Below are positions 1 to 20,385 of a stretch of 62,666 nt of DNA, piece by piece. The stretch covers positions 1 to 62,666 of the forward strand of contig QPMI01000329.1 of the NCBI GenBank assembly GCA_004431415.1, in the 5' to 3' direction. This stretch comes from Cyanophora paradoxa CCMP329. Taxonomy: Eukaryota > Plantae > Glaucophyta. Each line of letters starts with the position of its first letter. Position 1 is the first letter of the stretch. A program made the translations under genes and the position numbers. The notes beneath the pieces are model-generated. The model had not been told where the DNA came from. It did not search any database and saw only the letters and a list, made by a program, of their open reading frames with translations.

Positions 1-3000
1 CTAGAAAACTAACACCCTCCCTATCATGCAAACCTGCCAGAGTGCTCTGGCGAATCCCAGCGCTCCTTCCTGCTGTTTCGTGTGGGTGGGGACCCCTGTG
101 AGATTTCGGGGGCGATGGGGCAGCCCGAACCCAACCTCGAAACTAGAAAACTAACACCCTCCCTATCATGCAAACCTGCCAGAGTGCTCTGGCGAATCCC
201 AGCGCTCCCTGCCTGCTGTTTCGTGTGGGTGGGGACCCCTGTGAGATTTCGGGGGGCGATGGGGGCAGCCCCGAACCCAACCTCGAAACTAGAAAACTAA
301 CACCCTCCCTATCATGCAAACCTGCCAGAGTGCTCTGGCGAATCCCAGCGCTCCTGCCTGCTGTTTCGTGTGGGTGGGACCCTGTGAGATTTCGGGGGCG
401 ATGGGGCAGCCCGAACCCAACCTCGAAACTAGAAAACTAACACCCTCCCTATCATGCAAACCTGCCAGAGTGCTCTGGCGAATCCCAGCGCTCCCTGCCT
501 GCTGTTTCGTGTGGGTGGGGACCCCTGTGAGATTTCAGGGGGCGATCGGGGCAGCCCGAACCCAACCTCGAAACTAGAAAACTAACACCCCTCCCTATCA
601 TGCAAACCTGCCAGAGTGCTCTGGCGAATCCCAGCGCTCCCTGCCTGCTGTTTCGTGTGGGTGGGGACCCCTGTGAGATTTCGGGGGGCGATCGGGGCAG
701 CCCCGAACCCAACCTCGAAACTAGAAAACTAACACCCCTCCCTATCATGCAAACCTGCCAGAGTGCTCTGGCGAATCCCAGCGCTCCCTGCCTGCTGTTT
801 CGTGTGGGTGGGGACCCCTGTGAGATTTCGGGGGGCGATGGGGGCAGCCCCGAACCCAACCTCGAAACTAGAAAACTAACACCCCTCCCTATCATGCAAA
901 CCTGCCAGAGTGCTCTGGCGAATCCCAGCGCTCCCTGCCTGCTGTTTCGTGTGGGTGGGGACCCCTGTGAGATTTCAGGGGGCGATCGGGGCAGCCCCGA
1001 ACCCAACCTCGAAACTAGAAAACTAACACCCCTCCCTATCATGCAAACCTGCCAGAGTGCTCTGGCGAATCCCAGCGCTCCCTGCCTGCTGTTTCGTGTG
1101 GGTGGGGACCCCTGTGAGATTTCGGGGGCGATCGGGGCAGCCCGAACCCAACCTCGAAACTAGAAAACTAACACCCCTCCCTATCATGCAAACCTGCCAG
1201 AGTGCTCTGGCGAATCCCAGCGCTCCCTGCCTGCTGTTTCGTGTGGGTGGGGACCCCTGTGAGATTTCGGGGGGCGATGGGGGCAGCCCCGAACCCAACC
1301 TCGAAACTAGAAAACTAACACCCCTCCCTATCATGCAAACCTGCCAGAGTGCTCTGGCGAATCCCAGCGCTCCCTGCCTGCTGTTTCGTGTGGGTGGGGA
1401 CCCCTGTGAGATTTCGGGGGGCGATCGGGGCAGCCCCGAACCCAACCTCGAAACTAGAAAACTAACACCCCTCCCTATCATGCAAACCTGCCAGAGTGCT
1501 CTGGCGAATCCCAGCGCTCCCTGCCTGCTGTTTCGTGTGGGTGGGGACCCCTGTGAGATTTCGGGGGGCGATCGGGGCAGCCCCGAACCCAACCTCGAAA
1601 CTAGAAAACTAACACCCCTCCCTATCATGCAAACCTGCCAGAGTGCTCTGGCGAATCCCAGCGCTCCCTTCCTGCTGTTTCGTGTGGGTGGGGACCCCTG
1701 TGAGATTTCGGGGGGCGATCGGGGCAGCCCCGAACCCAACCTCGAAACTAGAAAACTAACACCCCCCTATCATGCAAACCTGCCAGAGTGCTCTGGCGAA
1801 TCCCAGCGCTCCCTTCCTGCTGTTTCGTGTGGGTGGGGACCCCTGTGAGATTTCGGGGGCGATCGGGGCAGCCCGAACCCAACCTCGAAACTAGAAAACT
1901 AACACCCCTCCCTATCATGCAAACCTGCCAGAGTGCTCTGGCGAATCCCAGCGCTCCCTGCCTGCTGTTTCGTGTGGGTGGGGACCCCTGTGAGATTTCG
2001 GGGGCGATTGGGGCAGCCCCGAACCCAACCTCGAAACTAGAAAACTAACACCCCTCCCTATCATGCAAACCTGCCAGAGTGCTCTGGCGAATCCCAGCGC
2101 TCCCTGCCTGCTGTTTTGTGTGGGTGGGGACCCTGTGAGATTACGGGGGCAATGGGGGCAGCCCCGAACCCAACCTCGAAACTAGAAAACTAACACCCCT
2201 CCCTATCATGCAAACCTGCCAGAGTGCTCTGGCGAATCCCAGCGCTCCCTGCCTGCTGTTTCGTGTGGGTGGGGACCCCTGTGAGATTTCAGGGGGCGAT
2301 CGGGGCAGCCCCAAACCCAACCTCGAAACTAGGAAACTAACACCCCTCCCTATCATGCAAACCTGCCAGAGTGCTCTGGCGAATCCCAGCGCTCCCTGCC
2401 TGCTGTTTGGTGTGGGTGGGGACCCCTGTGAGATTTCGGGGGGCGATGGGGGCAGCCCCGAACCCAACCTCGAAACTAGAAAACTAACACCCCTCCCTAT
2501 CATGCAAACCTGCCAGAGTGCTCTGGCGAATCCCAGCGCTCCCTGCCTGCTGTTTCGTGTGGGTGGGGACCCCTGTGAGATTTCGGGGGCGATCAGGGCA
2601 GCCCCAACCCAACCTCGAAACTAGAAAACTAACACCCCTCCCTATCATGCAAACCTGCCAGAGTGCTCTGGCGAATCCCAGCGCTCCCTTCCTGCTGTTT
2701 CGTGTGGGTGGGGACCCCTGTGAGATTTCGGGGGCGATCGGGGCAGCCCCGAACCCAACCTCGAAACTAGAAAACTAACACCCCTCCCTATCATGCAAAC
2801 CTGCCAGAGTGCTCTGGCGAATCCCAGCGCTCCTGCCTGCTGTTTCGTGTGGGTGGGGACCCCTGTGAGATTTCGGGGGGCGATGGGGGCAGCCCCGAAC
2901 CCAACCTCGAAACTAGAAAACTAACACCCCTCCCTATCATGCAAACCTGCCAGAGTGCTCTGGCGAATCCCAGCGCTCCCTGCCTGCTGTTTCGTGTGGG

Positions 3001-6000
3001 TGGGACCCCTGTGAGATTTCGGGGGCGATCGGGGCAGCCCCGAACCCAACCTCGAAACTAGAAAACTAACACCCTCCCTATCATGCAAACCTGCCAGAGT
3101 GCTCTGGCGAATCCCAGCGCTCCCTGCCTGCTGTTTCGTGTGGGTGGGGACCCCTGTGAGATTTCGGGGGGCGATCGGGGCAGCCCCGAACCCAACCTCG
3201 AAACTAGAAAACTAACACCCCTCCCTATCATGCAAACCTGCCAGAGTGCTCTGGCGAATCCCAGCGCTCCCTGCCTGCTGTTTGTGTGGGTGGGGACCCC
3301 TGTGAGATTTCGGGGGCGATGGGGGCAGCCCCGAACCCAACCTCGAAACTAGAAAACTAACACCCCTCCCTATCATGCAAACCTGCCAGAGTGCTCTGGC
3401 GAATCCCAGCGCTCCCTGCCTGCTGTTTCGTGTGGGTGGGGACCCCTGTGAGATTTCGGGGGCGATGGGGCAGCCCCAACCCAACCTCGAAACTAGAAAA
3501 CTAACACCCCTCCCTATCATGCAAACCTGCCAGAGTGCTCTGGCGAATTCCAGCGCTCCCTTCCTGCTGTTTGGTGTGGGTGGGGACCCCTGTGAGATTT
3601 CGGGGGCGATGGGGGCAGCCCCGAACCCAACCTCGAAACTAGAAAACTAACACCCCTCCCTATCATGCAAACCTGCCAGAGTGCTCTGGCGAATCCCAGC
3701 GCTCCCTGCCTGCTGTTTCGTGTGGGTGGGGACCCCTGTGAGATTTCGGGGGCGATGGGGGCAGCCCGAACCCAACCTCGAAACTAGAAAACTAACACCC
3801 CTCCCTATCATGCAAACCTGCCAGAGTGCTCTGGCGAATCCCAGCGCTCCCTTCCTGCTGTTTCGTGTGGGTGGGGACCCCTGTGAGATTTCGGGGGCGA
3901 TGGGGCAGCCCGAACCCAACCTCGAAACTAGAAAACTAACACCCCTCCCTATCATGCAAACCTGCCAGAGTGCTCTGGCGAATCCCAGCGCTCCCTGCCT
4001 GCTGTTTCGTGTGGGTGGGGACCCCTGTGAGATTTCGGGGGCGATGGGGCAGCCCCAACCCAACCTCGAAACTAGAAAACTAACACCCCTCCCTATCATG
4101 CAAACCTGCCAGAGTGCTCTGGCGAATCCCAGCGCTCCCTCCTGCTGTTTCGTGTGGGTGGGGACCCCTGTGAGATTTCGGGGGCATGGGGCAGCCCCGA
4201 ACCCAACCTCGAAACTAGAAAACTAACACCCCTCCCTATCATGCAAACCTGCCAGAGTGCTCTGGCGAATCCCAGCGCTCCCTGCCTGCTGTTTCGTGTG
4301 GGTGGGACCCCTGTGAGATTTCGGGGGCGATGGGGCAGCCCCAACCCAACCTCGAAACTAGAAAACTAACACCCCTCCCTATCATGCAAACCTGCCAGAG
4401 TGCTCTGGCGAATCCCAGCGCTCCCTCCTGCTGTTTCGTGTGGGTGGGGACCCCTGTGAGATTTGGGGGGCGATCGGGGCAGCCCCGAACCCAACCTCGA
4501 AACTAGAAAACTAACACCCCTCCCTATCATGCAAACCTGCCAGAGTGCTCTGGCGAATCCCAGCGCTCCCTGCCTGCTGTTTCGTGTGGGTGGGGACCCC
4601 TGTGAGATTTGGGGGGGCGATCGGGGCAGCCCCGAACCCAACCTCGAAACTAGAAAACTAACACCCCTCCCTATCATGCAAACCTGCCAGAGTGCTCTGG
4701 CGAATCCCAGCGCTCCCTGCCTGCTGTTTCGTGTGGGTGGGGACCCCTGTGAGATTTCGGGGGGCGATGGGGCAGCCCCGAACCCAACCTCGAAACTAGA
4801 AAACTAACACCCCTCCCCATCATGCAAACCTGCCAGAGTGCTCTGGCGAATCCCAGCGCTCCCTGCCTGCTGTTTGTGTGGGTGGGACCCCTGTGAGATT
4901 TCGGGGGCGATGGGGCAGCCCCAACCCAACCTCGAAACTAGAAAACTAACACCCCTCCCTATCATGCAAACCTGCCAGAGTGCTCTGGCGAATCCCAGCG
5001 CTCCCTCCTGCTGTTTCGTGTGGGTGGGGACCCCTGTGAGATTTCGGGGGCGATGGGGCAGCCCCAACCCAACCTCGAAACTAGAAAACTAACACCCCTC
5101 CCTATCATGCAAACCTGCCAGAGTGCTCTGGCGAATCCCAGCGCTCCCTGCCTGCTGTTTGTGTGGGTGGGGACCCCTGTGAGATTTCGGGGGCGATGGG
5201 GCAGCCCGAACCCAACCTCGAAACTAGAAAACTAACACCCCTCCCTATCATGCAAACCTGCCAGAGTGCTCTGGCGAATCCCAGCGCTCCCTTCCTGCTG
5301 TTTGGTGTGGGTGGGGACCCCTGTGAGATTTCGGGGGGCGATGGGGGCAGCCCCGAACCCAACCTCGAAACTAGAAAACTAACACCCCTCCCTATCATGC
5401 AAACCTGCCAGAGTGCTCTGGCGAATCCCAGCGCTCCCTGCCTGCTGTTTCGTGTGGGTGGGGACCCCTGTGAGATTTCGGGGGGCGATGGGGGCAGCCC
5501 CGAACCCAACCTCGAAACTAGAAAACTAACACCCCTCCCTATCATGCAAACCTGCCAGAGTGCTCTGGCGAATCCCAGCGCTCCCTGCCTGCTGTTTCGT
5601 GTGGTGGGGACCCCTGTGAGATTTCGGGGGCGATCGGGGCAGCCCCAAACCCAACCTCGAAACTAGAAAACTAACACCCCTCCCTATCATGCAAACCTGC
5701 CAGAGTGCTCTGGCGAATCCCAGCGCTCCCTGCCTGCTGTTTCGTGTGGGTGGGGACCCCTGTGAGATTTCGGGGGCAATCGGGGCAGCCCCGAACCCAA
5801 CCTCGAAACTAGAAAACTAACACCCCTCCCTATCATGCAAACCTGCCAGAGTGCTCTGGCGAATCCCAGCGCTCCCTGCCTGCTGTTTCGTGTGGGTGGG
5901 GACCCCTGTGAGATTTCGGGGGCATCGGGGCAGCCCCGAACCCAACCTCGAAACTAGAAAGCTAACACCCCTCCCTATCATGCAAACCTGCCAGAGTGCT

Positions 6001-8229
6001 CTGGCGAATCCCAGCGCTCCCTTCCTGCTGTTTGGTGTGGGTGGGGACCCCTGTGAGATTTCGGGGGCGATGGGGGCAGCCCCGAACCCAACCTCGAAAC
6101 TAGAAAACTAACACCCCTCCCTATCATGCAAACCTGCCAGAGTGCTCTGGCGAATCCCAGCGCTCCCTTCCTGCTGTTTGGTGTGGGTGGGGACCCCTGT
6201 GAGATTTCGGGGGCGATCGGGGCAGCCCCGAACCCAACCTGAAACTAGAAAACTAACACCCCTCCCTATCATGCAAACCTGCCAGAGTGCTCTGGCGAAT
6301 CCCAGCGCTCCCTGCCTGCTGTTTCGTGTGGGTGGGGACCCCTGTGAGATTTCGGGGGGCGATGGGGGCAGCCCCGAACCCAACCTCGAAACTAGAAAAC
6401 TAACACCCCTCCCTATCATGCAAACCTGCCAGAGTGCTCTGGCGAATCCCAGCGCTCCCTGCCTGCTGTTTCGTGTGGTGGGGACCCCTGTGAGATTTCG
6501 GGGGGCGATCGGGGCAGCCCCAACCCAACCTCGAAACTAGAAAACTAACACCCCTCCCTATCATGCAAACCTGCCAGAGTGCTCTGGCGAATCCCAGCGC
6601 TCCCTGCCTGCTGTTTCGTGTGGGTGGGGACCCCTGTGAATTTCGGGGGCAATGGGGCAGCCCCGACCCAACCTTGAAACTAGAAAACTAACACCCCTCC
6701 CTATCATGCAAACCTGCCAGAGTGCTCTGGCGAATCCCAGCGCTCCTTCCTGCTGTTTCGTGTGGGTGGGGACCCTGTGAAATTTCGGGGGCATCGGGGC
6801 AGCCCGACCCAACCTTGAAACTAGAAAACTAACACCCCTCCCTATCATGCAAACCTGCCAGAGTGCTCTGGCGAATCCCAGCGCCCCTGCCTGCTGTTTC
6901 GTGTGGGTGGGGACCCCTGTGAGATTTCGGGGGGCGATCGGGGCAGCCCCGAACCCAACCTCGAAACTAGAAAACTAACACCCCTCCCTATCATGCAAAC
7001 CTGCCAGAGTGCTCTGGCGAATCCCAGCGCTCCTTTCCTGCTGTTTCGTGTGGGTGGGGACCCCTGTGAGATTTCGGGGGGCATGGGGCAGCCCCGCACC
7101 CAACCTGAAACTAGAAAACTAACACCCCTCCCTATCATGCAAACTGCCAGAGTGCTCTGGCGAATCCCAGGCTCCCTGCCTGCTGTTTCTGTGGGTGGGG
7201 ACCCCTGTGAGATTTCGGGGGGCGATGGGGGCAGCCCCGAACCCAACCTCAAAACTAGAAAACTCACACCCCTCCCTATCATGCAAACCTGCCAGAGTGC
7301 TCTGGCGGATCCCAGCGCCCCCTGCCTGCTGTTTCGTGTGGGTGGGGACCCCTGTGAGATTTTGGGGGGCGATCGGGGCAGCCCCAAACCCAACCTCGAA
7401 ACTAGAAAACTAACACCCCTCCCTATCATGCAAACCTGCCAGAGTGCTCTGGCGAATCCCAGCGCCCCCTGCCTGCTGTTTCGTGTGGGTGGGGACCCCT
7501 GTGAAATTTCGGGGGGCAATCGGGGCAGCCCCGCACCCAACCTTGAAACTAGAAAACTAACACCCCTCCCTATCATGCAAACCTGCCAGAGTGCTCTGGC
7601 GAATCCCAGCGCTCCGTTCCTGCTGTTTCGTGTGGGTGGGGACCCCTGTGAGATTTCGGGGGGCGATCGGGGCAGCCCTGAACCCAACCTCGAAACTAGA
7701 AAACTAACACCCCTCCCTATCATGCAAACCTGCCAGAGTGCTCTGGCGGATCCCAGCGCTCCCTTCCTGCTGTTTCGTGTGGGTGGGGACCCCTGTGAGA
7801 TTTCAGGGGGCGATGGGGGCAGCCCGAACCCAACCCCGAAACTAGAAAACTAACACCCCTCCCTATCATGCAAACCTGCCAGAGTGCTCTGCCGAATCCC
7901 AGCGCTCCCTTCCTGCTGTTTTGTGTGGGTGGGGACCCCTGTGAGATTTCGGGGGGCGATGGGGGCAGCCCCGAACCCAACCTCAAAACTAGAAAATTCA
8001 CACCCCTCCCTATCATGCAAACCTGCCAGAGTGCTCTGGCAAATCCCAGCGCCCCCTGCCTGCTGTTTCGTGTGGGTGGGGACCCCTGTGAGATTTCAGG
8101 GGGCGATCGGGGCCACCCCGAACCCAACCCCGAAACTAGAAAACTAACACCCCTCCCTATCATGCAAACCTGCCAGAGTGCTCTGGCGGATCCCAGCCCT
8201 CCCTTCCTTCTGTTTCGTGTGGGTGGGGA
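1..8229 (+). repeat. 147-bp GC-rich satellite, homogeneous head-to-tail array (about 56 monomers)
   Basis: The unit ctagaaaactaacacccctccctatcatgcaaacctgccagagtgctctggcgaatcc...gaacccaacctcgaaa recurs continuously. The ORF track shows a 49-codon period (147 bp). Deviations are mostly 1-bp indels in G/C runs. Confidence 0.98.
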
Positions 8230-8538
8230 AGCTCAGCGTGGCGCCATGCCCCCAAAAAATAAAACCCAAATTCCCCCGATAATCCCGATAATAAACCGAT
8301 TCTTCCGAAAATCTCAGTAAGACTCAGTAATAGAATCGATAAAATCGAAATTTATCGTAATGTATCGATAGATTAACCCACGATCTATTTAATCTCGATA
8401 ATCCCGATAATCCCGATACTCACCCGAAAATCTCAGTAAGACTCAGTAAGACTATACGCGCAATACGCTTTTATTCATTGCATCGACAAAAACATGAAAT
8501 TCGCCGCCATGCCCCCGAAATTTTACATCGTTTCCCCC
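8230..8538 (+). repeat. Left terminal inverted repeat (309 bp)
   Basis: agctcagcgtggcgccatgcc...ttttacatcgtttccccc is the reverse complement of 19536-19844. It contains internal direct repeats (cccgataatcccgata; ccgaaaatctcagtaagactcagtaa twice). Confidence 0.96.
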
Positions 8539-8646
8539 CAAAAATACAAAGTGCTGCTTTGCATTTTATACAAAAAATACAAATAAGATACAAATATTTA
8601 TGCTATTTATGTATTAGCGTGCTTCAATTGCTACTTACGTAGGTGA

Positions 8647-9102
8647 TTACTCGAAGGGATCCTGAGAAGAGATCTCACGGACTTCGAGCTTGTCGAGCGG
8701 ATTGCCGTTAAGGGCGTTCAGCATCTTGTTGATACCGTCCAATTTAACAAAGTGTCCGAATTTGCGAATGTATTTGTGCGGGTTTGTCGGATTCTCACGC
8801 ATCGTGAGACGGGTCGCATTGGTGATGCGAAGGAACGCGATGTAATTCTTCAAATCTGCGGCGAACTTCTGATACTCCTGCGAATCCGGATTCGCGATAC
8901 GTTCCAAAAATTCGAGGTCTTCCGTCGTCTTTGAATGAGCTTCTTTGATAGCCGGCGGGATGTCACCCGCGCGAGCCTGAATTTGACCGAAGGCTCGGAA
9001 CATGAGTTCAATCATACCGTTATAATCTTCACGCTGCTTAGTCGGATCACTCATGATGGTCGCTGACATGCTACGAAGCTGGTCGATGGTGAGAGCCGCC
9101 AT
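8647..9102 (-). CDS. Hypothetical helical protein of the element (about 151 aa from MAALTIDQ; an upstream ATG at 9216 is possible)
   Basis: Open frame with protein-like composition. The track's N-terminal extension runs into the GCGCAACC repeats and is probably not real. No family recognised. Confidence 0.6.
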   Translation of the reverse strand: MAALTIDQLRSMSATIMSDPTKQREDYNGMIELMFRAFGQIQARAGDIPPAIKEAHSKTTEDLEFLERIANPDSQEYQKFAADLKNYIAFLRITNATRLTMRENPTNPHKYIRKFGHFVKLDGINKMLNALNGNPLDKLEVREISSQDPFE

Positions 9103-9230
9103 TGGTTCTTGATTTTGTTCGATTGGCTTAGCGACTTTCTGTTTTTTTGAAGCACGATATTGGCGATGATATAGTTTTCTATCGCGTTTTGGTGCGGTCT
9201 GAACGCCTTGCTCCATCTGCCCCGCCCCCC

Positions 9231-9350
9231 CGCAACCATTTTTTTGGTTGCGCAACCCTTTTTTTTGGTCGCGCAACCACCGCAACCTGGTCGCGCAACC
9301 ATCGCAACCTGGTCGCGCAACCACCGCAACCTGGTTGCGCAACCATTTTT
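9231..9350 (+). repeat. Subterminal (GC)GCAACC-based short repeats, left
   Basis: Tandem gcgcaaccaccgcaacctggtc-like units; inverted counterpart at 19411-19535. Confidence 0.85.
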
Positions 9351-10421
9351 TTAAGACCCCCCGCGCTTGGTCAACCCACTTCTCAGATTGTAGCGGCGCC
9401 TCACGACCTTGCTTCGGTTGGGTCTGATCCCTTCCTTCGCAACCAATCTATTCACTTTATTCGTTTTCTTTACGCGTTCGATGCGCTTTTGCGACGGAAT
9501 TCTTATAATTTCCTCCGCGTTCACTTTTTGCAACTCCTGCTTTTTAAAGCGCCTCGCTACCTCTTTCGGTGTCTCCCCATCGTTGTCCTCTAAAACTTTG
9601 AACCTGTTCCGGTCGGTTTTCCCCACCTTATAGACCTTCTGACTGAATTGCGCGCCTTCTTTTTCGAATGCGCCTCGCGGTTGCAAAACGCGAACAGTAT
9701 CACCCGGTTTGATTGTGTTCGGGTCGTTTGCCTTCACGTTATTGTTGTGAACTGTGTCGCGCATGTAAATAAAAAGTTGCTTGTCTTCACTTGCGTAAAC
9801 TGCGTTCGGCGAATCATTCTTCAATGCCGAATGTGGGCTACTGTTGTATACATCCACCACATCCCCCACTAAATCAATCCATTTCGTGGTTGCCTTGGAA
9901 GTCATAGCCTTCCTTAAATACTGCTTGAAGGTTCTCGTGAACCTATCGATTATCCCAAGTTTATCCCCCACACTTATGTGATCATCTTTCGCTAAATCTG
10001 TGTAAAGTGCTACACCATTTTCACTGCACCAATTTCGGTAGACTGCATTCGAAAATTCATTATCCCCTGATAATGCACTAACCTTACCTGCATCTCGTTT
10101 GAACCTATTTAAAATACTCGGAATCTCTTCATTGGTTCTAAAAGGAAACACAAATGCCTTTCTGCTGAGAATGTCTACAAAACTAATCAGTTTAAAATAA
10201 CCATTATTTGCTGTCTGATAACCTCGAAAGAACATGATGTCTACTTGAAATGAATTCGGTTTCGCGACAATTCGAAGGAACGATTTCGGCTTTTTCGGTT
10301 TCTTAAAGATCTGTTGGAGTTCCGAATTCTCAAATCGCTTTTTCAATTCTTTTTCATCAAATCGCACTTTTTCATTTATCAGTTTCTGACGATACTTTGA
10401 GTAAGAGAGGATCTGTTCCAT
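9351..10421 (-). CDS. Retroviral-like (rve) integrase, Polinton type
   Basis: Motifs FQVDIMF, FVDILSRKAF, SGDNEF, IIDRFTRTFK, WIDLVGDVVDVYNSSPHSAL..SPN and a C-terminal GDTVRV SH3-like part. The ATG at 10421-10419 overlaps the upstream stop (TAATG). Confidence 0.93.
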   Translation of the reverse strand: MEQILSYSKYRQKLINEKVRFDEKELKKRFENSELQQIFKKPKKPKSFLRIVAKPNSFQVDIMFFRGYQTANNGYFKLISFVDILSRKAFVFPFRTNEEIPSILNRFKRDAGKVSALSGDNEFSNAVYRNWCSENGVALYTDLAKDDHISVGDKLGIIDRFTRTFKQYLRKAMTSKATTKWIDLVGDVVDVYNSSPHSALKNDSPNAVYASEDKQLFIYMRDTVHNNNVKANDPNTIKPGDTVRVLQPRGAFEKEGAQFSQKVYKVGKTDRNRFKVLEDNDGETPKEVARRFKKQELQKVNAEEIIRIPSQKRIERVKKTNKVNRLVAKEGIRPNRSKVVRRRYNLRSGLTKRGGS

Positions 10422-13400
10422 TATTGCGCGGCGCAATTACACTTAATATGAGACAGGAAACAATTTTTAGTGATATGCGCCACTGCATTGTTCACTCGAT
10501 CCACTGAGATATCGGCGAAATCCAAAGCATCGTAGCACCGACCACAGTGACCGTATTGCTTGCCGTAGCGCTTCTTAATCCAATCCCAAGTGATGTAATC
10601 TTTGTCGTCATACAGTCTGTTCGCAATCCGGTCTTGATCCTTGTAAGTTGCGATTTTTTCGTTCCCGTCGCGCTTGTAAACTATCCAATCTGCATACTCG
10701 TAGCCATTGTGGTAAATCACAACATCACTTAGTCGCGTTGTTCTTGTCAATGCGACGTAAAGCCACTCCTTCGAAACAAAGGGCGCCCCCGCCTCAAACA
10801 CCACCACCCTGTTCCCTTCGCACCGAATCGTATCGCCCTGTATTACGTGACAAGTGTGAGCATACGAAAGAGCGAAATGTTTAACCGCATCAGATTCCAA
10901 CTTGATATGCTCACCGCTCGCAACATCCTCAATAACGAATTCCTTTTCGGAAAAGTTCACAATGTTGTAAGTGAATCCGTTGTGAATCGTGTAACCATTC
11001 TTGACCATGCGCGTCTTTGCGACGATCTTAACGCCGCTCGCGAAAATCGGCACATCTTCCCCGTAGTTCATTCTGTGAAGATTTAGATTCACTTCGGCGC
11101 CCTTCCTATTGGTGTAAACTATCGCGACGTCCGTTTTCTCCAAAGTATCAACCCTCTTGAATTGATACTTTTCGATCACATCAGATACACTCAATCCTTT
11201 CTCGAACAAGTCAGTGTGTATTTTCTCTACTGTTCTGCGATCTTCCACGCTTTCGTGTCGCTTGTTGACTTGTAGTAGCAACTCGTTCTCGAACAGTCGA
11301 TGTAGGATGTCCAAGTAGTATTCTTTCTGGTCTACCGTCATGTCCTGAATCGGTGGGTTCTGGAAGGGATCCCCCGTAGCTATGTAATCCTTGTCGGGGA
11401 ACTGCACACTCATGATGTGATCGAGAGCGGATAACTCGCCAATTTTGAACTGACAGATTTCATCGATTATGATGCAATCGTATTCGACTAATCCGGCTGA
11501 GTTGCCCCCGACGATCTCATCCATTGCGGATTCGTCAATTTTCAGGTGAAGCGCATCGTAGATTGTCTTTACGTTTTTCAAACCTTGTTCTTTCATCTCT
11601 TTCACGCGCTTGTTTGTCGGAACGATGAAAAGCGGGTTTTTGAATCGCTTGCCGTATTCAATTGTCATGTAAGTCTTTCCCACGCCCGGCACGACCCCAA
11701 GTAGAACCCACCGCTTTTGGGTTGCGAGGAGGTCACAGATAGCGAGGGTGTTGAACTCATCGGTTACGGTGTGGCGTTGAAACCCGAACTCCTGAATTTT
11801 AACGAAATCTTCCGATCGCTCAAACCTTCCGCATCGGATGCGCTTGTATTCCAAATCTTTCTTTTCGCCCACGAACTTCTTGTAGAAATTCCTGCATGGC
11901 TTCACACTGAATCGCCCGATATTCTCAAATGCATTTCGGTTAAAGTCTACGGATTCCATGGATCCGATTGCGTAGACACAATCCGTATTCATCGCGAGAG
12001 GATAGATTTGCAATTTTGCGAGTTCTATGCACTTCTCATACATGCACATGCGCATGAGTGAATACATGAGATTGTGGAACGGTAGAAATCCATCAATCAA
12101 TTGCTTTTCCGAAACCTGATTAACGTAGTAAACGTGGGGTTCTGTCATATCGCATTCACTCATAACGAATGTGGTGGGGTCGTAGGTTGTGGGGTCTTTC
12201 CCCAAAAAGTATATCTTCACTTCCCCGCCGTGTTGCTTCTGGAACTCAATCGCATCATCGCGCTTATTAAATACTGTCGTCTTCACCCTGCTATTTTTTT
12301 GCTTCCCAAGTTGACCCGTGTTTGAAACGAGAATCTGTTTCTTATCGGTCGATTCGAGATCGCTCTCTAATACTTGCTTGACTGTGTGACCCGCAAGGTT
12401 ACGAACCAATTTGTATGGCCGTAGAACCCCGGTAATGCGTATGTCGTCCTTTAAGTCGCTGTAATGTTTTTTTAGAACCAAACCGGGGATAACATTGTAG
12501 CGATCACTAACTATCATGCGCTTGTATCTATCATACGTGTTTGCCTCGAACTTGTTCCCGTTCTTGTCCTTCCGCTTGACGAAGTATTTTTCGTTCAGAG
12601 TCACGTAGTAGAAGCTGTATTCTTCGATTTCGTCCGCCGAAGCAATCGAGGCTTTTTTGAACACATCGAACTTGCTCAGAACCGGAACGAACTCAATCAG
12701 ATTCGCGATAATGTGAGGATACGCCTTACACATGTCGACCTCTTTGATGTCTTCGCTGTAATAGATCTCTTCGCGAATTTGTTCATCCAAGTCGAACAGT
12801 CCACGAAGTGCTGTTTGTGATCCGATTTTGAAGGCTGTTTGCGTTTGCTCATTATAGCAACTCTTGTTCGCGGAATTGATCAGAGTGCGATACATCGCCA
12901 AGTTCAGTTTCTCGAATTTTTCGCGATACTCAGCATTTCTGAACTGAATCTCGAAGGCTGTTTCTACTTCGGTGTCTGAACCTGGCGGGGTAATTACTAC
13001 ATCCTTGTCTTCGATCGTGAAGTGAATCTGAGTGATCTTTTTCATGGGCGAGATTGTTGCATGAACTTGATAATTGTGATTCACCACAAATTGTGTAAAC
13101 AATTCATCGAGCGGCGCCCCATAACAAATGCGAATCTTCGACTGATTTTTCAGAGTATCCGAATTCAGAATCTGGACGATCTCATCCGGATTCGAAGCGA
13201 ATTCTTTGTGTCTCCTTTGCTTGATGATCTTGTAACGAGATCCGAGCGAAAGCGTCGTATCTTTCGGCTTTGATCCGTTGAAAGATTGCGTTAGTGATTT
13301 CACATTGTGGTTGAGCAAATACATGTGTTCGTTTTCGATCTTAACGTATGCAACACAGGGAACAAGGTGTTTGTTTCGTGTTTTGGGGTGATAGGTCAAC

Positions 13401-14506
13401 TCAGGGATTACGGTTTTATCGTCTTTCCCAATTGTTACCATTCCCAAGCGTAGCGGTTCGAGAATCTTTGTAACCACTTCCGCGAAAGACACACCCCAAT
13501 CATCCCCTTCAACTGGCGGGCGCCCCCGAACCATCGTAAATAATCCCTCGTATGACCAATCCACTTTCTTGTATTTTCCCTTTTCTTTTGCTTTCGCATA
13601 CGCTGGTGTGAACTGCTGAATAAGAACATCAAACACACACTTCCCGACTTTGAACGCATTGCCTCTAAGAAACATGTCCTGAAAAGTCTTCGCCTCAGGA
13701 TTCATTGCGTAGCGCAAGTAGTTCGAAATGATCATAGGCGCGTGCGTATTGTCCCGAAGAATTTGCTCATTTCTTGGGATGTGCGTTTGGTTATCGGTAG
13801 TAATGATTCGCTCGATTGTCATGATCTCAGGGTAAATGTCCATTTCGACATGGCGAAGGTAACGGAAATCTTGGTTTTGCTTGTTGAAATCGATCACTTG
13901 GAAAATGAAATCGTAGATACGTTCACCCGTCACACAAGGGAATGTGTTAAACGTTCCAAGAATCAGATTAGATGCAACAAGGAAGGCTTCTTTTGTGCAT
14001 TGAACAGCGAGGGGGCGATTGTTGCGAACTCGCTTCGCTTCGATATACGTAATTCCATTCTCGGGGTCGACGACCCGGTTTACGTGCGCGGGGGCTGCCT
14101 CGCCCTCCCTCAATTCCCGAAAGAGTCGAATGTGAATTGTGACCATGTTACCGGGCGAGTTTACAATGAACTCGCGAAGGTCGGTTTTCATCCGATTGAA
14201 CGGATTCGTGTGTGTCTTTGTGTTTCTCTCTGGTCGCTGATTCACCAACTCCTGCGGAACATCAATACGACCCAAGCGGTTAATTTCATCTTCTGTGTTT
14301 TGCTGAGCCTCACCTCTCGCAATGATATCATCAATTGAGAATTCGATGTCGTTTAGTGCGCTTAGTCTCGGTCGTCTGACGAAGGCAAAGTGACCGAATG
14401 CGTTAAATTGCTCTTCATTCATAAACCCATTTCCAAGAGCATAACCAAGCTTCGAAAGAATACTCGCTCTCTTCTTCGCGGATTGGATACTAACTGCGCG
14501 AGGCAT
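10421..14506 (-). CDS. Family B (protein-primed type) DNA polymerase fused to an SF1 (Pif1/RecD-like) helicase, with a possible N-terminal OTU-like protease and C-terminal HNH-like domain
   Basis: PolB-like motifs A DMCKAYP, B KQILVSNTGQLG, C MNTDCVY. SF1 motifs GVVPGVGKT, IIIDE, GDPFQNPP, AHTCHVIQGDT, YVALTR. C-terminus CGRC...SVDRVNN..AH...NC....CNC. Confidence 0.85.
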   Translation of the reverse strand: MPRAVSIQSAKKRASILSKLGYALGNGFMNEEQFNAFGHFAFVRRPRLSALNDIEFSIDDIIARGEAQQNTEDEINRLGRIDVPQELVNQRPERNTKTHTNPFNRMKTDLREFIVNSPGNMVTIHIRLFRELREGEAAPAHVNRVVDPENGITYIEAKRVRNNRPLAVQCTKEAFLVASNLILGTFNTFPCVTGERIYDFIFQVIDFNKQNQDFRYLRHVEMDIYPEIMTIERIITTDNQTHIPRNEQILRDNTHAPMIISNYLRYAMNPEAKTFQDMFLRGNAFKVGKCVFDVLIQQFTPAYAKAKEKGKYKKVDWSYEGLFTMVRGRPPVEGDDWGVSFAEVVTKILEPLRLGMVTIGKDDKTVIPELTYHPKTRNKHLVPCVAYVKIENEHMYLLNHNVKSLTQSFNGSKPKDTTLSLGSRYKIIKQRRHKEFASNPDEIVQILNSDTLKNQSKIRICYGAPLDELFTQFVVNHNYQVHATISPMKKITQIHFTIEDKDVVITPPGSDTEVETAFEIQFRNAEYREKFEKLNLAMYRTLINSANKSCYNEQTQTAFKIGSQTALRGLFDLDEQIREEIYYSEDIKEVDMCKAYPHIIANLIEFVPVLSKFDVFKKASIASADEIEEYSFYYVTLNEKYFVKRKDKNGNKFEANTYDRYKRMIVSDRYNVIPGLVLKKHYSDLKDDIRITGVLRPYKLVRNLAGHTVKQVLESDLESTDKKQILVSNTGQLGKQKNSRVKTTVFNKRDDAIEFQKQHGGEVKIYFLGKDPTTYDPTTFVMSECDMTEPHVYYVNQVSEKQLIDGFLPFHNLMYSLMRMCMYEKCIELAKLQIYPLAMNTDCVYAIGSMESVDFNRNAFENIGRFSVKPCRNFYKKFVGEKKDLEYKRIRCGRFERSEDFVKIQEFGFQRHTVTDEFNTLAICDLLATQKRWVLLGVVPGVGKTYMTIEYGKRFKNPLFIVPTNKRVKEMKEQGLKNVKTIYDALHLKIDESAMDEIVGGNSAGLVEYDCIIIDEICQFKIGELSALDHIMSVQFPDKDYIATGDPFQNPPIQDMTVDQKEYYLDILHRLFENELLLQVNKRHESVEDRRTVEKIHTDLFEKGLSVSDVIEKYQFKRVDTLEKTDVAIVYTNRKGAEVNLNLHRMNYGEDVPIFASGVKIVAKTRMVKNGYTIHNGFTYNIVNFSEKEFVIEDVASGEHIKLESDAVKHFALSYAHTCHVIQGDTIRCEGNRVVVFEAGAPFVSKEWLYVALTRTTRLSDVVIYHNGYEYADWIVYKRDGNEKIATYKDQDRIANRLYDDKDYITWDWIKKRYGKQYGHCGRCYDALDFADISVDRVNNAVAHITKNCFLSHIKCNCAAQ

Positions 14507-14545
14507 TTCGTTGGCGCTTTTCTTATTCTATACAAATAAATTTAT

Positions 14546-14580
14546 TCTTTAAGTGATTTTATTTTACGGCGTCATTTTTT
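14546..14580 (-). promoter_or_regulatory. Putative viral promoter (AAAAAATGACG plus ACTTAAAGA) upstream of the pol-helicase gene
   Basis: The same two motifs recur at 15074-15084 and 15031-15039. The first also recurs at 19388-19398. Each lies upstream of a minus-strand gene. Confidence 0.55.
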
Positions 14581-14741
14581 GACCGTTGCATTTTAGCGAT
14601 CAGACAAGAAAATTAGAAAAATAACAAAGGGTCGACCATCATACAATGGTTCTAAAAATAATACAAACAAGATTTATTACGATTAAGCGCGGTTGCGCTC
14701 GCGCTGGGTTCTCAGGGCAAACGCGCTGAGAAAAAACAATT

Positions 14742-14996
14742 TCAGAAGTAGATCGAAGGGCGCCCCCGATTTGAGTGCGGAACCCCATAAAGGTATTTAA
14801 TGTAACACACCGCGTTCGCGACGTATTGGCGTTGTGAACTATCGACTATCTTCATCGCTCGGTAACACTCGTCGGTGTCGTATAATTCCTTCATCTGTTT
14901 CGAAAGTCTGTTGCTATACTTTTTCAGATACTCACGACCCTTTTCGGTCTTGCGGTAACGGTAAATTGCGCGCTTCTGTGCTTCGCTAATCGGCAT
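14742..14996 (-). CDS. Small basic hypothetical protein (84 aa, MPISEAQKRAIYRY...), possibly DNA-binding
   Basis: ATG preceded by the shared promoter-like motifs; K/R/Y-rich helical sequence. Confidence 0.6.
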   Translation of the reverse strand: MPISEAQKRAIYRYRKTEKGREYLKKYSNRLSKQMKELYDTDECYRAMKIVDSSQRQYVANAVCYIKYLYGVPHSNRGRPSIYF

Positions 14997-15333
14997 CGTG
15001 CTTTGTCCTCTTCTGTTATATAACAAGAAATCTTTAAGTCCTTTTTGTTGTTGGTATATACTTTTTGAAATGCCGTCATTTTTTGCACCGTTTTGAAAGA
15101 AAGATGCCGGAAAAATAAATCGAAGTGTCCCCGATTGTCTACTTGTCGGTCGCAAGTTTCCACGAATGAACCCCGTAGAACAGGTGATAAAAGCGCGATA
15201 TACATGGATATCACATTTTTCTACAACGCCACCCAAAAAAAAATGAGTAACGTGAGCCTACGCGAATGGATTGTTTACGTAGCGCTACATTTGAACAAGA
15301 AATTTTTTAACGGTAAAATGATCATTAAGGGTT

Positions 15334-16092
15334 TTAAAACCTCCGGTAACCGGGGCGGATCCCAAGTTTTGCGAACCCCGAAACCATGGGGGCGGCGGAG
15401 GGAACCGATGTAATGGGGTCGGCTTGCGAAGTGGCGACCCGAAGTAAACTCTTATTCATTACCGGTAAATCGGTCTTGTTACTCTCCGCGTAATCGATGG
15501 TCTTAGCGATTAATTCAATTGGTGTATTTTGCGCGGTTGTGATTGGATCGGGAAGAACGTCGAACGTGACATCCGGTTTCTTTTCGACCTTCTCTTTCGT
15601 GATCTGCTGTTCGAGAATCTTGTTCTCTAACGCGGACTCGTTCGCAATCCCTTGAACCATTTTTTTGGCGTCCTGGTATTTGACCGATTTAAGACCGCCC
15701 GTTTTCAAGCGGATAAAGTAACGATTGCGGTTATCCTTCTCAGAGTATGTCGAATAAAGTCGCTCGCCGCCATCGAGAAGCTTTAAAAGCGTGGCGGATG
15801 GTAAAAGTTTCTCTTTGGTCTTCTCTCTGAAATGCTTTCGCTTCTTGGGCATTCGATTCAGTGGAACCTGGTCAATCAAAGCGTTATCGTCGTTCGCATT
15901 ATCGGTTGGTGTTGCTGTGTGCTGGTTCATCATTTTGTGGATGTCCTTGTCAAGATCACCTGTTCCAAGTGCTGCTGTTCCTTTGGATTTCTTGCCCCAA
16001 TTCCTTCCTGTCTTTCCCTCTGTTATCCTATCTGCATCTGCAACTGGTTTAGCCAAGAAATTCTTGGGTTGGGTTTTCCTGGATCCTGACAT
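15334..16092 (-). CDS. Lysine-rich hypothetical protein (252 aa), possible virion core protein
   Basis: Long ORF 24 bp downstream of the minor capsid gene on the same strand. Function is inferred from position and composition only. Confidence 0.7.
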   Translation of the reverse strand: MSGSRKTQPKNFLAKPVADADRITEGKTGRNWGKKSKGTAALGTGDLDKDIHKMMNQHTATPTDNANDDNALIDQVPLNRMPKKRKHFREKTKEKLLPSATLLKLLDGGERLYSTYSEKDNRNRYFIRLKTGGLKSVKYQDAKKMVQGIANESALENKILEQQITKEKVEKKPDVTFDVLPDPITTAQNTPIELIAKTIDYAESNKTDLPVMNKSLLRVATSQADPITSVPSAAPMVSGFAKLGIRPGYRRF

Positions 16093-16116
16093 TTGATATA
16101 TGCAAAGATATATTTT

Positions 16117-17010
16117 TTACAGATATGACCTACAAAATGGAATGAATGCCTCTTCGAAATCTTGTATCACCTTTTGAAGGGATCTCTTGGTTAGTTCCTT
16201 CTCATCCTCAGTCACAACTTCCAATGTCATACTCCAATCAGTTGTAATGTCTGCTGTGTTACCATTCCAATAAGAAAGTCTTACATCCATTGCTTCAAGT
16301 TCCACCAAGCCATTCTGTTCATGGGTGATCATTGCATTATTTGAAGAATCATATCTAAGCAAACTACCAACTGTCTTGTCAATCTCAATTTTAGCAAGAG
16401 CATTATTGTCTTTAATGTTATTGCTCACATACTTGCCTTTCAGTTGTGCAATGTGAAGTAGTAGGTATGAATTAAATAGAAGGTCTAATGGTATTTCACT
16501 GTCTATGTAGTGTGTGTATGTGTATGATCCAATGGTAACACTCCCATCTAAAAGTGTTGAGGGGTATACTTTGTTTGCATCTTTAAACCCAAGGAAATTT
16601 GCAAGAATCTTACTTCCAATAGTGATGCTGAATTCAACTTCACACATTAATCTTAAAAACATAGTAATGGGATCATAAGTAACATAGAAGTGTTTGGTGT
16701 AGGTTCCACTGGGACTTTGGGAATAGTTCTGTGATCCAATCTTAGCAATTAGGTAATTCACTAAACTGTCTGTTGTGTATGAACCTTTTGCAATAATATT
16801 ATGTCTGTTCTTTGTGCTTCCTGCTGCATCTTTGGTAGATGTGGTAAGTGATCCTGCTTCTGCAAGGTTGTAAATGTTATTGAACATTTCGAAATTGGTA
16901 ACTCTGCATGCTTTTACCTTTTGAATTGCATGGGGAAGTTTGTAGAGAAATTCGGATGGAGTTCCGTTTTCGCGATCTCTCGAATCAATATTAATATAAT
17001 AACGCGTCAT
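16117..17010 (-). CDS. Minor capsid (penton-like, single jelly-roll) protein
   Basis: N-terminal YINIDSRDR...PSEFLYKL and C-terminal MDVRLSYWNG....DWSMTLEV patterns are typical of PLV/NCLDV pentons. Divergent from the MCP gene. Confidence 0.8.
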   Translation of the reverse strand: MTRYYINIDSRDRENGTPSEFLYKLPHAIQKVKACRVTNFEMFNNIYNLAEAGSLTTSTKDAAGSTKNRHNIIAKGSYTTDSLVNYLIAKIGSQNYSQSPSGTYTKHFYVTYDPITMFLRLMCEVEFSITIGSKILANFLGFKDANKVYPSTLLDGSVTIGSYTYTHYIDSEIPLDLLFNSYLLLHIAQLKGKYVSNNIKDNNALAKIEIDKTVGSLLRYDSSNNAMITHEQNGLVELEAMDVRLSYWNGNTADITTDWSMTLEVVTEDEKELTKRSLQKVIQDFEEAFIPFCRSYL

Positions 17011-17062
17011 TCTGTTTATTATTGTAATTTAAAAATTTCTTGTTGTATTGTAAACAGCGAAA

Positions 17063-18289
17063 ATGGCGCTAAGTGGAACAACTCTTAAAGAACTACTTGT
17101 GACTCCCGGTTCGGATCAAGTGTATTTATCTCCTGGTCTTCAAATCGGAACCAATCCCAAGTATAAACCGTTTTTAGAGCAAGTCCGCCCTCGTGGTAAC
17201 ACTTTCGGATTCAAAACAACCGCTTACTTTGATCTACCGCGTAAGCAACTTCTGAGCGGTGTTAGTCTCAATTTTAAGGTCACAACGGGTGGCGCCGTTC
17301 AATGCGTAATGCCCAATGGTGGTTCGTCGTTTATTTCCGAAGTCCGCTTCGTTCACGGTGGGTTTAAATACATTATTCCCGGCGATTGGATTACAGTTAA
17401 TGCGCTCGTCGATAACGACCACGCCACAATGGCGAGCATGTTTGTTTCGCTGGGTTACTACTCTGAGAACAACCGAAACAGCACCGATAAGACCTGGGAA
17501 TATGTCGTTAAAATTCCGGCGCAATTCTGGGATGATGCGTATTTCCCACTTTGCGTTCTTGCCGATATGCCTACGATTGAGGTCGACTTCCGCGAAGCTG
17601 CGGTAGTTCAGGTTCCCGAGGGCGGAAAGGTTGCTATGAACGACTGCGCCCTCATCTGTCAATTCGTTAACATCGCCTCCCCCGAGGCGGAAGCGCTACT
17701 GAAAATGGCGAACGAACAAGGGGGCATTCGCATCCCAATTACCGAAGTGATTCAGAAGCGAACTCGATCTCTCAAAACCGCCGATGCGGGTGAATCTGTC
17801 GAGGTTTCGCTTGCGAATGTTTCCGGTCTTGTTCACAGCATTCTCATGACAGTGCGCGAAGTGAACAAACTTAACAAATACACGCATTCAGATTTCGAGG
17901 GTTACGAAGGAAATGTTAGGATTGATCAATTCCAAATCTTCCACAATAACCGTTCTCTTGACATCTCGAACCGACCGATTAGCGGGTTCCTTTCGGCTGT
18001 GAACCACATCCCCTCGCATTACAAGGGAACTACCGTAGGTAATGTAAACTTCGGATTCCAAGGCGGCAATGTTTACGGGATCGTTCTTTCGAAGTCCGGT
18101 AAGGATTCCCTGCACAACTCTGTCATGGGTTACCAAGATTTCTTCAACTCTTCGAGTTCCTACATGGATCTCACAGTTTCCGGTTGCACTGATGCTGCAC
18201 CTGTTGTTGTTGACATTTACGCACTTCGCCACAACGTTCTCGTTCTCAACGGCTATAATATTTCTACGCTTAAAGTAAGTAACTTCTAA
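17063..18289 (+). CDS. Major capsid protein (double jelly-roll), 408 aa
   Basis: Size, beta-rich pattern (FDLP..LLSGVSLNFKV, SFISEVRFVHGG, YVVKIP, YFPLCVL..IEVDF) and position between the penton and ATPase genes. Confidence 0.8.
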   Translation: MALSGTTLKELLVTPGSDQVYLSPGLQIGTNPKYKPFLEQVRPRGNTFGFKTTAYFDLPRKQLLSGVSLNFKVTTGGAVQCVMPNGGSSFISEVRFVHGGFKYIIPGDWITVNALVDNDHATMASMFVSLGYYSENNRNSTDKTWEYVVKIPAQFWDDAYFPLCVLADMPTIEVDFREAAVVQVPEGGKVAMNDCALICQFVNIASPEAEALLKMANEQGGIRIPITEVIQKRTRSLKTADAGESVEVSLANVSGLVHSILMTVREVNKLNKYTHSDFEGYEGNVRIDQFQIFHNNRSLDISNRPISGFLSAVNHIPSHYKGTTVGNVNFGFQGGNVYGIVLSKSGKDSLHNSVMGYQDFFNSSSSYMDLTVSGCTDAAPVVVDIYALRHNVLVLNGYNISTLKVSNF

Positions 18290-18339
18290 GCGAGTGGTGT
18301 GGGTTATTGGCTTAATCGTTTTTTTATGGGATTACTGTA

Positions 18340-19097
18340 ATGGATAACACAGTAGACCTAAACGATATACCGGAATTCGAGCCGAACAGAACAATTAAAA
18401 TACCTACGCGAATCTTAAATTGTGGACGCTCCAACACTGGTAAGACAATGTTCACTAAATATTTACTTTACGAATTACGCGATAAAATCGATCAGATCGT
18501 AGTTTTTAGTTCGACTGCGTTTACGGGTCAATTTAGAGACATCACCCATCCCGATAATATTTACGAGGAATGGAATGATGATTTAGTTTTAAGATTGATC
18601 AGCATGCAAAAAAAAGAATCGAGAACAACGAGAAACGCCACAATTTAGTTTTGATTCTTGATGACATGATAGGTTCCACACTGGACATGCATAATAATGC
18701 TGTGTTATCTAAATTGGTAACGAGTGGACGCCATTATTCGATTTCGGTTATTTTTAATGTCCAACGTATATGTTCTATTTCTACTACCATTCGTCGTAAT
18801 GTGGAATTCGTTGTATTTTTTAATATTCTTGGGAACGAAAAAGAGTTTAACTGCGCTTACGATGAATACAATGGTGGAATGGATAAGAAAACTTACAAAG
18901 AATTACATCGCCTGTGGGGATATAATTATCAAACTGTAATCGCAAGTTTGCAAGGTTATGACATAAAAACTTACACAGATCGCGCGATTTTGACAGATGA
19001 TGACATGAACGGTTTTAGGAAGTTTATGAGACGAAGAGCGATAAAAAGGAGTGGTGGAGCGAGAATTAGTAGGGAACCGACAACGATTACAGTTTAG
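18340..19097 (+). CDS. A32/FtsK-HerA family genome-packaging ATPase, split by a 1-bp frameshift in the A-run near 18610
   Basis: Walker A GRSNTGKT, Walker B LILDD, and SGRHYSISVIFNVQ. One extra A joins the two track ORFs (MQKKRIENNEKRHNLVLILDD). Confidence 0.92.
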
Positions 19098-19359
19098 GAT
19101 TGCTTTTTGGCTTCGAGTTTCATTCTCAGTCTCAGTCTTGCGAAGTTGGAATCGTGGCGGGCTTCCGCTAATTTGAGGTTTTCATGATACGTATACGAGC
19201 GTTCAGCGTTCAAGTCTTTCTGGCGGAACTCTGAACTTGCGAAAGATTGCAACCGGTTAAACGTGTGAATGCGCGACGCCCGATTTCTTTGTTTTTCTCG
19301 TCTTCTGAAAGATCAAGGTTGACCCCGATAAGATCGAAATATTCTTTTGGGATACTCAT
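19094..19359 (-). CDS. Small hypothetical protein (about 88 aa, MSIPKEYFDL...MKLEAKKQS), needs +1 A in an A-run; not in the ORF track
   Basis: Manual translation. AAAAAATGACG lies about 29 nt upstream, and the stop overlaps the ATPase stop. Confidence 0.4.
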
Positions 19360-19410
19360 GGTTAGCAATCATTTTTTCGGTGCAACGCGTCATTTTTTGC
19401 CCTTGAAGGG

Positions 19411-19535
19411 GTGGTTGCGCGACCAAAAAAATGGTTGCGGGGTGGTTGCGCGACCTGGTTGCGGTGGTTGCGCGACCTGGTTGCGATGGTTGCGCAACCA
19501 AAAAAAATGGTTGCGCGACCAAAACAAATGGTTGC
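19411..19535 (-). repeat. Subterminal GGTTGCGC-based short repeats, right, abutting the TIR
   Basis: Imperfect reverse complement of 9231-9350. Confidence 0.85.
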
Positions 19536-19844
19536 GGGGGAAACGATGTAAAATTTCGGGGGCATGGCGGCGAATTTCATGTTTTTGTCGATGCAATGAA
19601 TAAAAGCGTATTGCGCGTATAGTCTTACTGAGTCTTACTGAGATTTTCGGGTGAGTATCGGGATTATCGGGATTATCGAGATTAAATAGATCGTGGGTTA
19701 ATCTATCGATACATTACGATAAATTTCGATTTTATCGATTCTATTACTGAGTCTTACTGAGATTTTCGGAAGAATCGGTTTATTATCGGGATTATCGGGG
19801 GAATTTGGGTTTTATTTTTTGGGGGCATGGCGCCACGCTGAGCT
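19536..19844 (-). repeat. Right terminal inverted repeat (309 bp)
   Basis: Reverse complement of 8230-8538; no mismatch noticed by eye. Confidence 0.96.
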
Positions 19845-20091
19845 TGGGGACCCCTGTGAAATTTCGGGGGGCAATCGGGGAAGCCCCGCACCCAACCTTG
19901 AAACTAGAAAACTAACACCCCTCCCTATCATGCAAACCTGCCAGAGTGCTCTGGCGGATCCCAGCACTCCCTGCCTGCTGTTTCATGTGGGTGGGGACCC
20001 CTGTGAGATTTCGGGGGGCGATGGGGGCAGCCCCGAACCCAACCTCAAAACTAGAAAACTCACACCCCTCCCTATCATGCAAACCTGCCAG
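19845..20091 (+). repeat. 147-bp satellite, about 1.7 monomers
   Basis: Continues the monomer interrupted at 8229. Confidence 0.95.
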
Positions 20092-20226
20092 TGTTAGCCC
20101 CCCCCCCCTATGACTCTTGTCCCTTGGGTCTTGCCCCTTCAGAGAGTGTCTTGTCTTTTCGTCTTGTTTTTGTCAAAAAGAACTATTTCAACTCTTCAAA
20201 TTACCACTGTAAGCTCTTCGCTTACA
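20092..20226 (+). repeat. 5' LTR (about 135 bp, TG...CA) of Ty3/Gypsy family 1, followed by PBS TGGTAGCA (20229-20236)
   Basis: Runs tgttagccc...cttaca. The same sequence follows a polypurine tract at 57460. The PBS resembles the complement of an initiator tRNA-Met 3' end. Confidence 0.85.
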
Positions 20227-20385
20227 AGTGGTAGCATCGGATCTCACGATCCTTTGCTTGATTCTCCAAAAATTTCACATTACAACCTCAGGCAAACCCT
20301 TGTGCGATTACAGCGCATTAATTTGGACACCGTGGAACAAGATATAGAAGTAGAAGTTGAAGACGATCAGGAAGACGAAGACGAA

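Follow-up and report, generated by a model that had tools for sequence, protein, structure and literature searches.

What does a single protein that carries the signatures of a protease, a polymerase, a helicase and a nuclease do in the genome of the glaucophyte Cyanophora paradoxa CCMP329? The window, that is, the whole 62,666-nucleotide stretch of contig QPMI01000329.1 to which all coordinates below refer, contains on its minus strand an uninterrupted reading frame of 1361 amino acids (aa) at 10421-14506, which lies inside an integrated polinton-like virus (PLV) of 11,615 bp (8230-19844). On the evidence of homologues and structural models, the encoded replication protein is a member of the family known as Tlr1-like helicases or pPolB-S1H proteins, an assignment made by its features, with the named members compared by description. 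It is probably the self-processing, protein-primed replicase of the integrated virus. This architecture is not new, having appeared in print in 2016 and 2024.

Architecture and conservation of the probable replicase

A sequence-only reading of this frame had recognized four motif sets, those of an OTU-like protease, a DNA polymerase of family B (PolB), a superfamily 1 (SF1) helicase and an HNH-like zinc domain, all of which are present: GKCVFD with Cys290 (13645-13628) and NEHMYL with His394 (13333-13316) for the protease, DMCKAYP (12736-12716) and NTDC (from 11989) for the polymerase, a Walker A (11698-11672), a Walker B (11473-11456) and motif VI (10759-10742) for the helicase, and a C-terminal pattern of CxxC, DR, H, N and HxxCN (10549-10436) for the nuclease. 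Of 2000 shuffled sequences, 603 contained motif A-like strings and 145 motif C-like strings, which places the polymerase motifs alone within chance, and none contained the HNH pattern. Since such short polymerase motifs are common in shuffles, the case rests on conservation and fold.

A phmmer search with aa 170-1361 against 1.84 billion representative sequences (clusters at 50% identity) revealed 887 relatives at E<=0.001, including 204 at E<=1e-30, which match along nearly the whole query. From the best 150 of the 887, 119 were aligned, leaving out 28 shorter than 1020 aa and three longer than 1540 aa; their identity to the replicase is 22-30%. H394, D591, K723, G731, D842, the Walker GK, E1016 and R1255 are invariant in all 119, C290 is kept in 118, and, among the nuclease residues, C1321 and C1324 are kept in 112, H1344 in 109 and N1348 in 112. 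At about 25% identity, the residues of putatively catalytic type are nearly invariant. The same architecture recurs in full-length relatives, 99 of the 119 carrying the key residues of all four domains together.

In the Atlas, the replicase is placed beside clusters of SF1 helicase proteins of 1200-1340 aa, one neighbouring cluster (score 0.96) having HNH in 84% of its members, and the best viral structure match was H6WBE3 (999 aa; E 1.4e-34; 1119 columns). Word-indexed protein searches returned no relative of the replicase and none of the likely capsid protein described below, blanks that reflect divergence, because the full HMMER search found the replicase relatives. Besides, tblastn against phage records gave no match, and PDB searches with single sequences produced nothing meaningful. 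Scanning viral contigs with the replicase, the likely capsid protein and the protein P0010 uncovered no locus, and Pfam searches with separate query pieces (protease, palm, N-terminal region and HNH) gave nothing useful.

Two viral contigs encode relatives of the replicase. One of them (L001) combines the relative P0004 with ATPase-like genes and genes of capsid size, and 13.9 of its 18.8 kb contained no match to an integrase. The other (L011), a 17-kb contig filed under a giant-virus bin, carries at 2273-7097 a pPolB-S1H relative of 1204 aa (E 4e-38) and, 103 bp downstream of it, an RVE integrase 31% identical to that of the Cyanophora element, in the same gene order. This relative keeps the protease, palm and helicase motifs.

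Comparison with the published family

The succession of a terminal protein, a viral OTU protease (vOTU), a palm and an SF1 helicase (TP-vOTU-PALM-S1H), followed by a C-terminal HNH or GIY-YIG nuclease, has been described in polinton-like viruses, Tlr1 and transpovirons (PMC5499653, PMC11161782). According to PMC5499653, Tlr1-like helicases are proteins of 1000-1400 aa with a protein-primed PolB (pPolB) palm, without exonuclease, with an altered motif C and with a C-terminal HNH in PLVs or GIY-YIG in Tlr1. PMC11161782 added a vOTU whose Cys and His are conserved, three domains located upstream of the palm and the name pPolB-S1H; it predicts that both the vOTU and the palm are active, proposes that the helicase was gained in compensation for the lost exonuclease, and attributes the endonucleases to invading inteins. 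In PMC12220804, genes for helicase-HNH proteins are reported to lie immediately upstream of RVE integrases, along with 6-bp duplications, and polB-SF1 fusions are counted among the common PLV replication modules in bioRxiv 10.64898/2026.06.19.733378. No biochemical test of the self-processing or compensation predictions was found in a literature search whose coverage ended outside subscription journals. A new architecture was rejected as already published; with 887 clusters at 50% identity, the architecture is also frequent in metagenomes, so that the finding is an ordinary one.

The replicase shares with the known pPolB-S1H proteins the length of 1000-1400 aa, a variable N-terminal domain, a domain in the terminal-protein position, the vOTU Cys/His, a palm without active exonuclease, an SF1B helicase, a C-terminal HNH and the missing first Asp of motif C. 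It differs from them in its low identity (at most about 30%) to any relative found, in the replacement of the motif B Asn by Val, in one zinc ligand that is His instead of Cys, and in an HNH domain identified as PacI-like.

Among named systems, Tlr1 of Tetrahymena thermophila, as characterized in PMC5499653, has, like the element, inverted ends, an RVE integrase and an ATPase, as well as capsid genes, which are putative in the element; in both, pPolB-S1H takes the place of the canonical pPolB, and no maturation protease was detected. The Tlr1 protein ends in GIY-YIG, whereas the replicase ends in HNH, and, unlike Tlr1, the element is only 11.6 kb long and its genes use the standard code. The canonical pPolB of Polintons/Mavericks (TP-vOTU-EXO-PALM; PMC11161782) likewise has a vOTU upstream of a palm of the protein-primed type, and these elements also have an RVE integrase, inverted repeats and a 6-bp duplication; in contrast, the replicase has no conserved exonuclease residues and carries a fused helicase and nuclease, and no capsid protease gene was detected in the element. 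A canonical Polinton polymerase was rejected because the exonuclease residues are absent. The Helicase SF1-pPolB protein of OmPLV from Oxyrrhis marina (PMC12721341) also joins an SF1 helicase and a pPolB in one chain, but there the helicase comes first, the exonuclease is kept and a tyrosine recombinase takes the place of RVE.

N-terminal region, protease and exonuclease position

The model of aa 1-423, which was built from 57 sequences (pLDDT 80), begins with a three-helix bundle (aa 7-77; 14276-14488, on the minus strand like all domains of the replicase) that matched only generic helical bundles. It is followed by an alpha/beta domain (aa 102-237; 13796-14203) whose position suggests the role of a terminal protein. 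Conservation and the model both point to a vOTU-like cysteine protease at aa 282-409 (13280-13663), in which Cys290 stands at the start of a helix and His394 at the start of a strand. All matches listed for this segment were OTU folds, namely 7mic (Z 5.5; root-mean-square deviation, rmsd, 4.2; 90 aligned residues), 6ks5 (5.4), 3tmp (5.3) and 4boz (5.2), of which 7MIC and 4BOZ are vOTU structures displayed in PMC11161782. The proposed OTU-like dyad is thereby supported by both conservation and fold. As in the description given in PMC11161782, three globular domains precede the palm region in the model.

Another alpha/beta domain without conserved acidic residues (aa 430-560; 12827-13219) was recognized from model and alignment between the protease and the palm. 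The alignment of the 119 relatives has no conserved acidic column of catalytic type in aa 400-590, in agreement with the earlier remark that clear exonuclease motifs are missing, and a folded domain remains there, which is possibly a degenerate exonuclease.

Polymerase palm and helicase

The model of aa 170-1361 was built from 56 sequences (pLDDT 81; pTM 0.79). It contains a family B polymerase palm at aa 585-880 (11867-12754), with D591 in motif A, K723 in motif B and D842 in motif C, which reads NTDC in the replicase and mostly K/N-T-D across the 119 relatives. In a Foldseek search, this model matched phi29 polymerase (E 2.1e-9; given without an aligned range) and no other polymerase among the matches listed. 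Beyond this match, the comparison for the TPR1 and TPR2 subdomains of protein-primed polymerases yielded a VIA fold list for the same model that was filled by helicases. The divergent PolB that had been proposed from DMCKAYP and NTDC is upheld by this match and by the invariance of D591 and D842.

The helicase (aa 914-1268; 10703-11767) belongs, by profile and model, to the Pif1/RecD/Dda-like SF1B group, in accordance with the earlier SF1 assignment. Its fold matched RecD2 (Z 28.3; rmsd 3.0; 321 aligned), Pif1 (Z 26.9) and UvrD (Z 17.9), and the family profile matched Bacteroides Pif1 at E 2e-18. SF1B is the class of 5'-to-3' helicases (PMC5499653).

The C-terminal nuclease

The C-terminal domain (10424-10660) is a zinc-binding His-Me finger (HNH) with D1336, R1337, H1344, N1348 and N1357, and the HNH-like zinc domain of the sequence-only reading is backed by the absence of its pattern from shuffles, by the conservation of C1321 and C1324 and by a weak match to PacI (family profile E 0.01; profile of 19 tails E 0.77). 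Pfam HNH was detected on three of the 19 tails (best E 0.0009). The PacI residues D92, R93, Y100, N104, C109, C112 and N113 align without gaps with D1336, R1337, H1344, N1348, H1353, C1356 and N1357, respectively. Of the 110 rows with the Arg, 108 show a His in place of the PacI loop Tyr, which we take to be residue 100 in agreement with this alignment. Like PacI (PDB 3ldy), the domain carries an Arg at the site of the catalytic His of typical HNH enzymes; unlike PacI, it has a His for the loop Tyr and is fused to a replicase. PacI itself (group 20, PMC5714182) is described as lacking the usual catalytic His and using a loop Tyr.

No publication on a PacI-like pattern in this family was found; the supplementary HNH alignments of PMC5499653 and PMC11161782 may already show it. 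The PacI-like identity, terminal placement and retention of the nuclease are a small addition to the published description of the family, and they suit a functional component better than they suit the homing endonuclease of the earlier publications.

Proposed replication model and alternative readings

On the lines of PMC11161782, the N-terminal alpha/beta domain would serve as the primer at the ends with their inverted repeats and, once freed by the vOTU (Cys290/His394), would remain attached to the 5' end; the palm (D591, K723, D842) would be active without proofreading. To this scheme we add that the SF1B helicase may supply the unwinding by moving 5'-to-3' along the displaced strand, in the same direction as the fork. 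Least certain is the step assigned to the C-terminal His-Me finger, which probably nicks or trims intermediates of replication. The separate RVE integrase would have inserted the genome and left the 6-bp duplication. A self-processing polyprotein whose helicase compensates for a reduced polymerase, as the sequence-only reading had suggested, is the best reading of the protein, but it is not a new one, having been predicted in PMC11161782.

Several points weigh against such a replicase. The OTU match is modest (Z of at most 5.5), and Foldseek gave no match to the protease at E<=0.001. The assignment of aa 102-237 as a terminal protein, suggested by position, has neither fold nor sequence support: the domain is poorly conserved (13% identity over aa 170-240), and fold searches with the N-terminal model listed no match for the domain, the lists being filled by generic helical bundles. 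The match of the nuclease to PacI is statistically weak, the first Asp of motif C is absent, and the replicase has Val727 in place of the motif B Asn that 108 of the 119 relatives retain. In addition, the gene of the packaging ATPase is split, so this copy of the element may be non-autonomous.

The alternative that survives best leaves the replicase in place and competes with the nuclease step only. It holds that the HNH domain is a selfish homing endonuclease carried as a passenger (PMC5499653, PMC11161782), for which we see nearly an even chance, the two possible roles, working part and passenger, being about evenly balanced. The type and position of the endonuclease vary in the family, as Tlr1 carries GIY-YIG and the L011 relative has no C-terminal domain and a canonical HNH at aa 470-530; the domain is absent in seven of the 119 relatives, and L001 has free-standing endonuclease-like open reading frames (ORFs), recognized by eye. 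However, all seven tested residues are kept in 106 of the 119 (the remaining six being partial), and the nuclease is the best-conserved region of the replicase (33% identity to the query), although the search query included this domain, which biases both the retention and the conservation figures upward. The domain lies 58-71 residues beyond motif VI of the helicase and is followed by a median of only six residues, so that an intein would have no C-terminal extein. Retention and terminal position argue for a role of the nuclease, whereas the variation of type and place across relatives and the absence of an integrase match in L001 argue against a role specific to integration.

A more specific proposal, which we consider somewhat unlikely, is that the domain is no homing-endonuclease passenger but a domesticated PacI-type nuclease (Asp-Arg...His...Asn), in which His does the job of the PacI Tyr, and that, together with the fused helicase, it nicks or trims the ends of the genome. 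It could, for instance, take off the terminal protein ahead of integration, which PMC11161782 calls unexplained. If such end-trimming were true, the 11.6-kb element, in which this replicase neighbours an RVE integrase, would offer a minimal test system. The suggestion that the HNH-like domain cuts host DNA found no supporting result in this analysis.

Quite unlikely, in our view, is the 2016 reading (PMC5499653), in which the polymerase domain is catalytically dead and structural, the protein is mainly a helicase, and a polymerase of the host or of a helper virus copies the genome. The missing first Asp of motif C was taken there as a sign of polymerase inactivation, and this Asp is missing from the NTDC of the replicase as well as from the common variants of the family; the replaced motif B Asn and the lack of exonuclease residues point the same way. 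Yet active PolBs without the same Asp exist (PMC11161782), D591, K723, G731 and D842 are invariant, and identity to the replicase across the 119 relatives is as high in the palm region (27.9%) as in the helicase (28.2%). Ten of the 11 relatives without the motif B Asn group with the replicase in a 14-row group (SH-like 98; FastTree only, with long branches), and, because the replacement is common to this clade, it appears to be a lineage trait and not decay. A dead polymerase is less likely because the palm is conserved like the helicase and the Val727 change is common to the clade, and polymerase decay was rejected on the latter ground. That genes next to each other in a decayed repeat region were joined by chance or by the assembly, as the scrambled satellite with its many truncated mobile elements might suggest, has a practically negligible probability and was rejected, since 99 of the 119 independent relatives have all four domains in one chain, the inverted ends of the element are identical and its target duplication is exact.

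The locus has a modest value as an intact example of the replicase, housed by an integrated element of very compact size whose ends are exact. It could serve to test the predicted activity of the palm, the predicted release of a terminal protein by the vOTU and the role of the nuclease.

The integrated element and its surroundings

The element (43.7% GC, compared with 59.7% GC in the satellite around it) is bounded by identical terminal inverted repeats of 309 bp, the left one (8230-8538, plus strand) beginning with AG and the right one (19536-19844, minus strand) ending with CT, and is flanked by the 6-bp target-site duplication TGGGGA (8224-8229 and 19845-19850, plus strand). The empty target site occurs in 146 copies within four substitutions in the 147-bp satellite of the window, and no second copy of the element was found within the window. 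Nine metagenome matches to the first 20 bases of the element were rejected as chance, sharing only 20-24 bases. Arrays of 21-22-bp repeats at 9226-9345 and 19401-19540 form a second inverted pair (86% complementary), the right array adjoining the right terminal repeat and the left one being set some 690 bp inward, past the ORF at 8647-9216.

The RVE integrase gene (9351-10436, minus strand; Pfam rve E 0.003) lies directly downstream of the replicase gene and overlaps its end by 16 bp. Its acidic columns are well kept among 79 relatives (D66 in 74, D125 in 78 and D164 in 75). Retroviral integrases usually have Glu at the third acidic position, which is Asp (D164) here. On the same strand, the ORF at 8647-9216 (about 189 aa from the first ATG) has sub-threshold Pfam matches only and no PHROG match, and those at 14742-15236 (164 aa) and 15334-16092 (252 aa) have no Pfam or PHROG assignment. 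The minus-strand ORF at 16117-17010 (297 aa) is a candidate minor capsid protein by its size and its position beside the capsid gene; it has no Pfam or PHROG family match and no pairwise match to the L001 candidate. On the plus strand, the gene at 17063-18289 likely encodes a jelly-roll capsid protein, as suggested by an Atlas feature score of 0.98 to clusters with Capsid_N or Capsid_NCLDV in 10-18% of their members, a score of low recognition value. It is followed by an A32-like packaging ATPase gene (18340-19097, plus strand; Pox_A32 on both halves, and tblastn), which is split between two frames at about 18609-18650. This split is either a real lesion or a sequencing error, despite the identical ends of the element and the intact state of its other long genes.

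Traces of other mobile sequences were also detected in the window. A second, diverged A32-like ATPase fragment (27494-27970), about 30% identical to that of the element and joined to sequence of a long terminal repeat (LTR) retrotransposon, is a remnant of another polinton-like element. An ORF at 33817-35037, in an AT-rich island, carries a C-terminal Peptidase_S74 chaperone domain like those of phage tail fibres (Pfam E 3e-17; PHROG E 1e-27) and is possibly derived from another virus-like element. Arrays of the 147-bp satellite in both orientations occupy 1-8229, 23481-32806, 35597-38649 and 49610-61491, and are interrupted by truncated pieces of LTR retrotransposons (20110-23382, 28107-29381, 41436-46777 and 56390-59652), while a 124-bp repeat begins at 61816. 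The satellite and the LTR retrotransposon genes themselves point to a eukaryotic host. An ORF of glycosyltransferase family 7 (galactosyltransferase-like) is located beside the satellite at 47251-48738.

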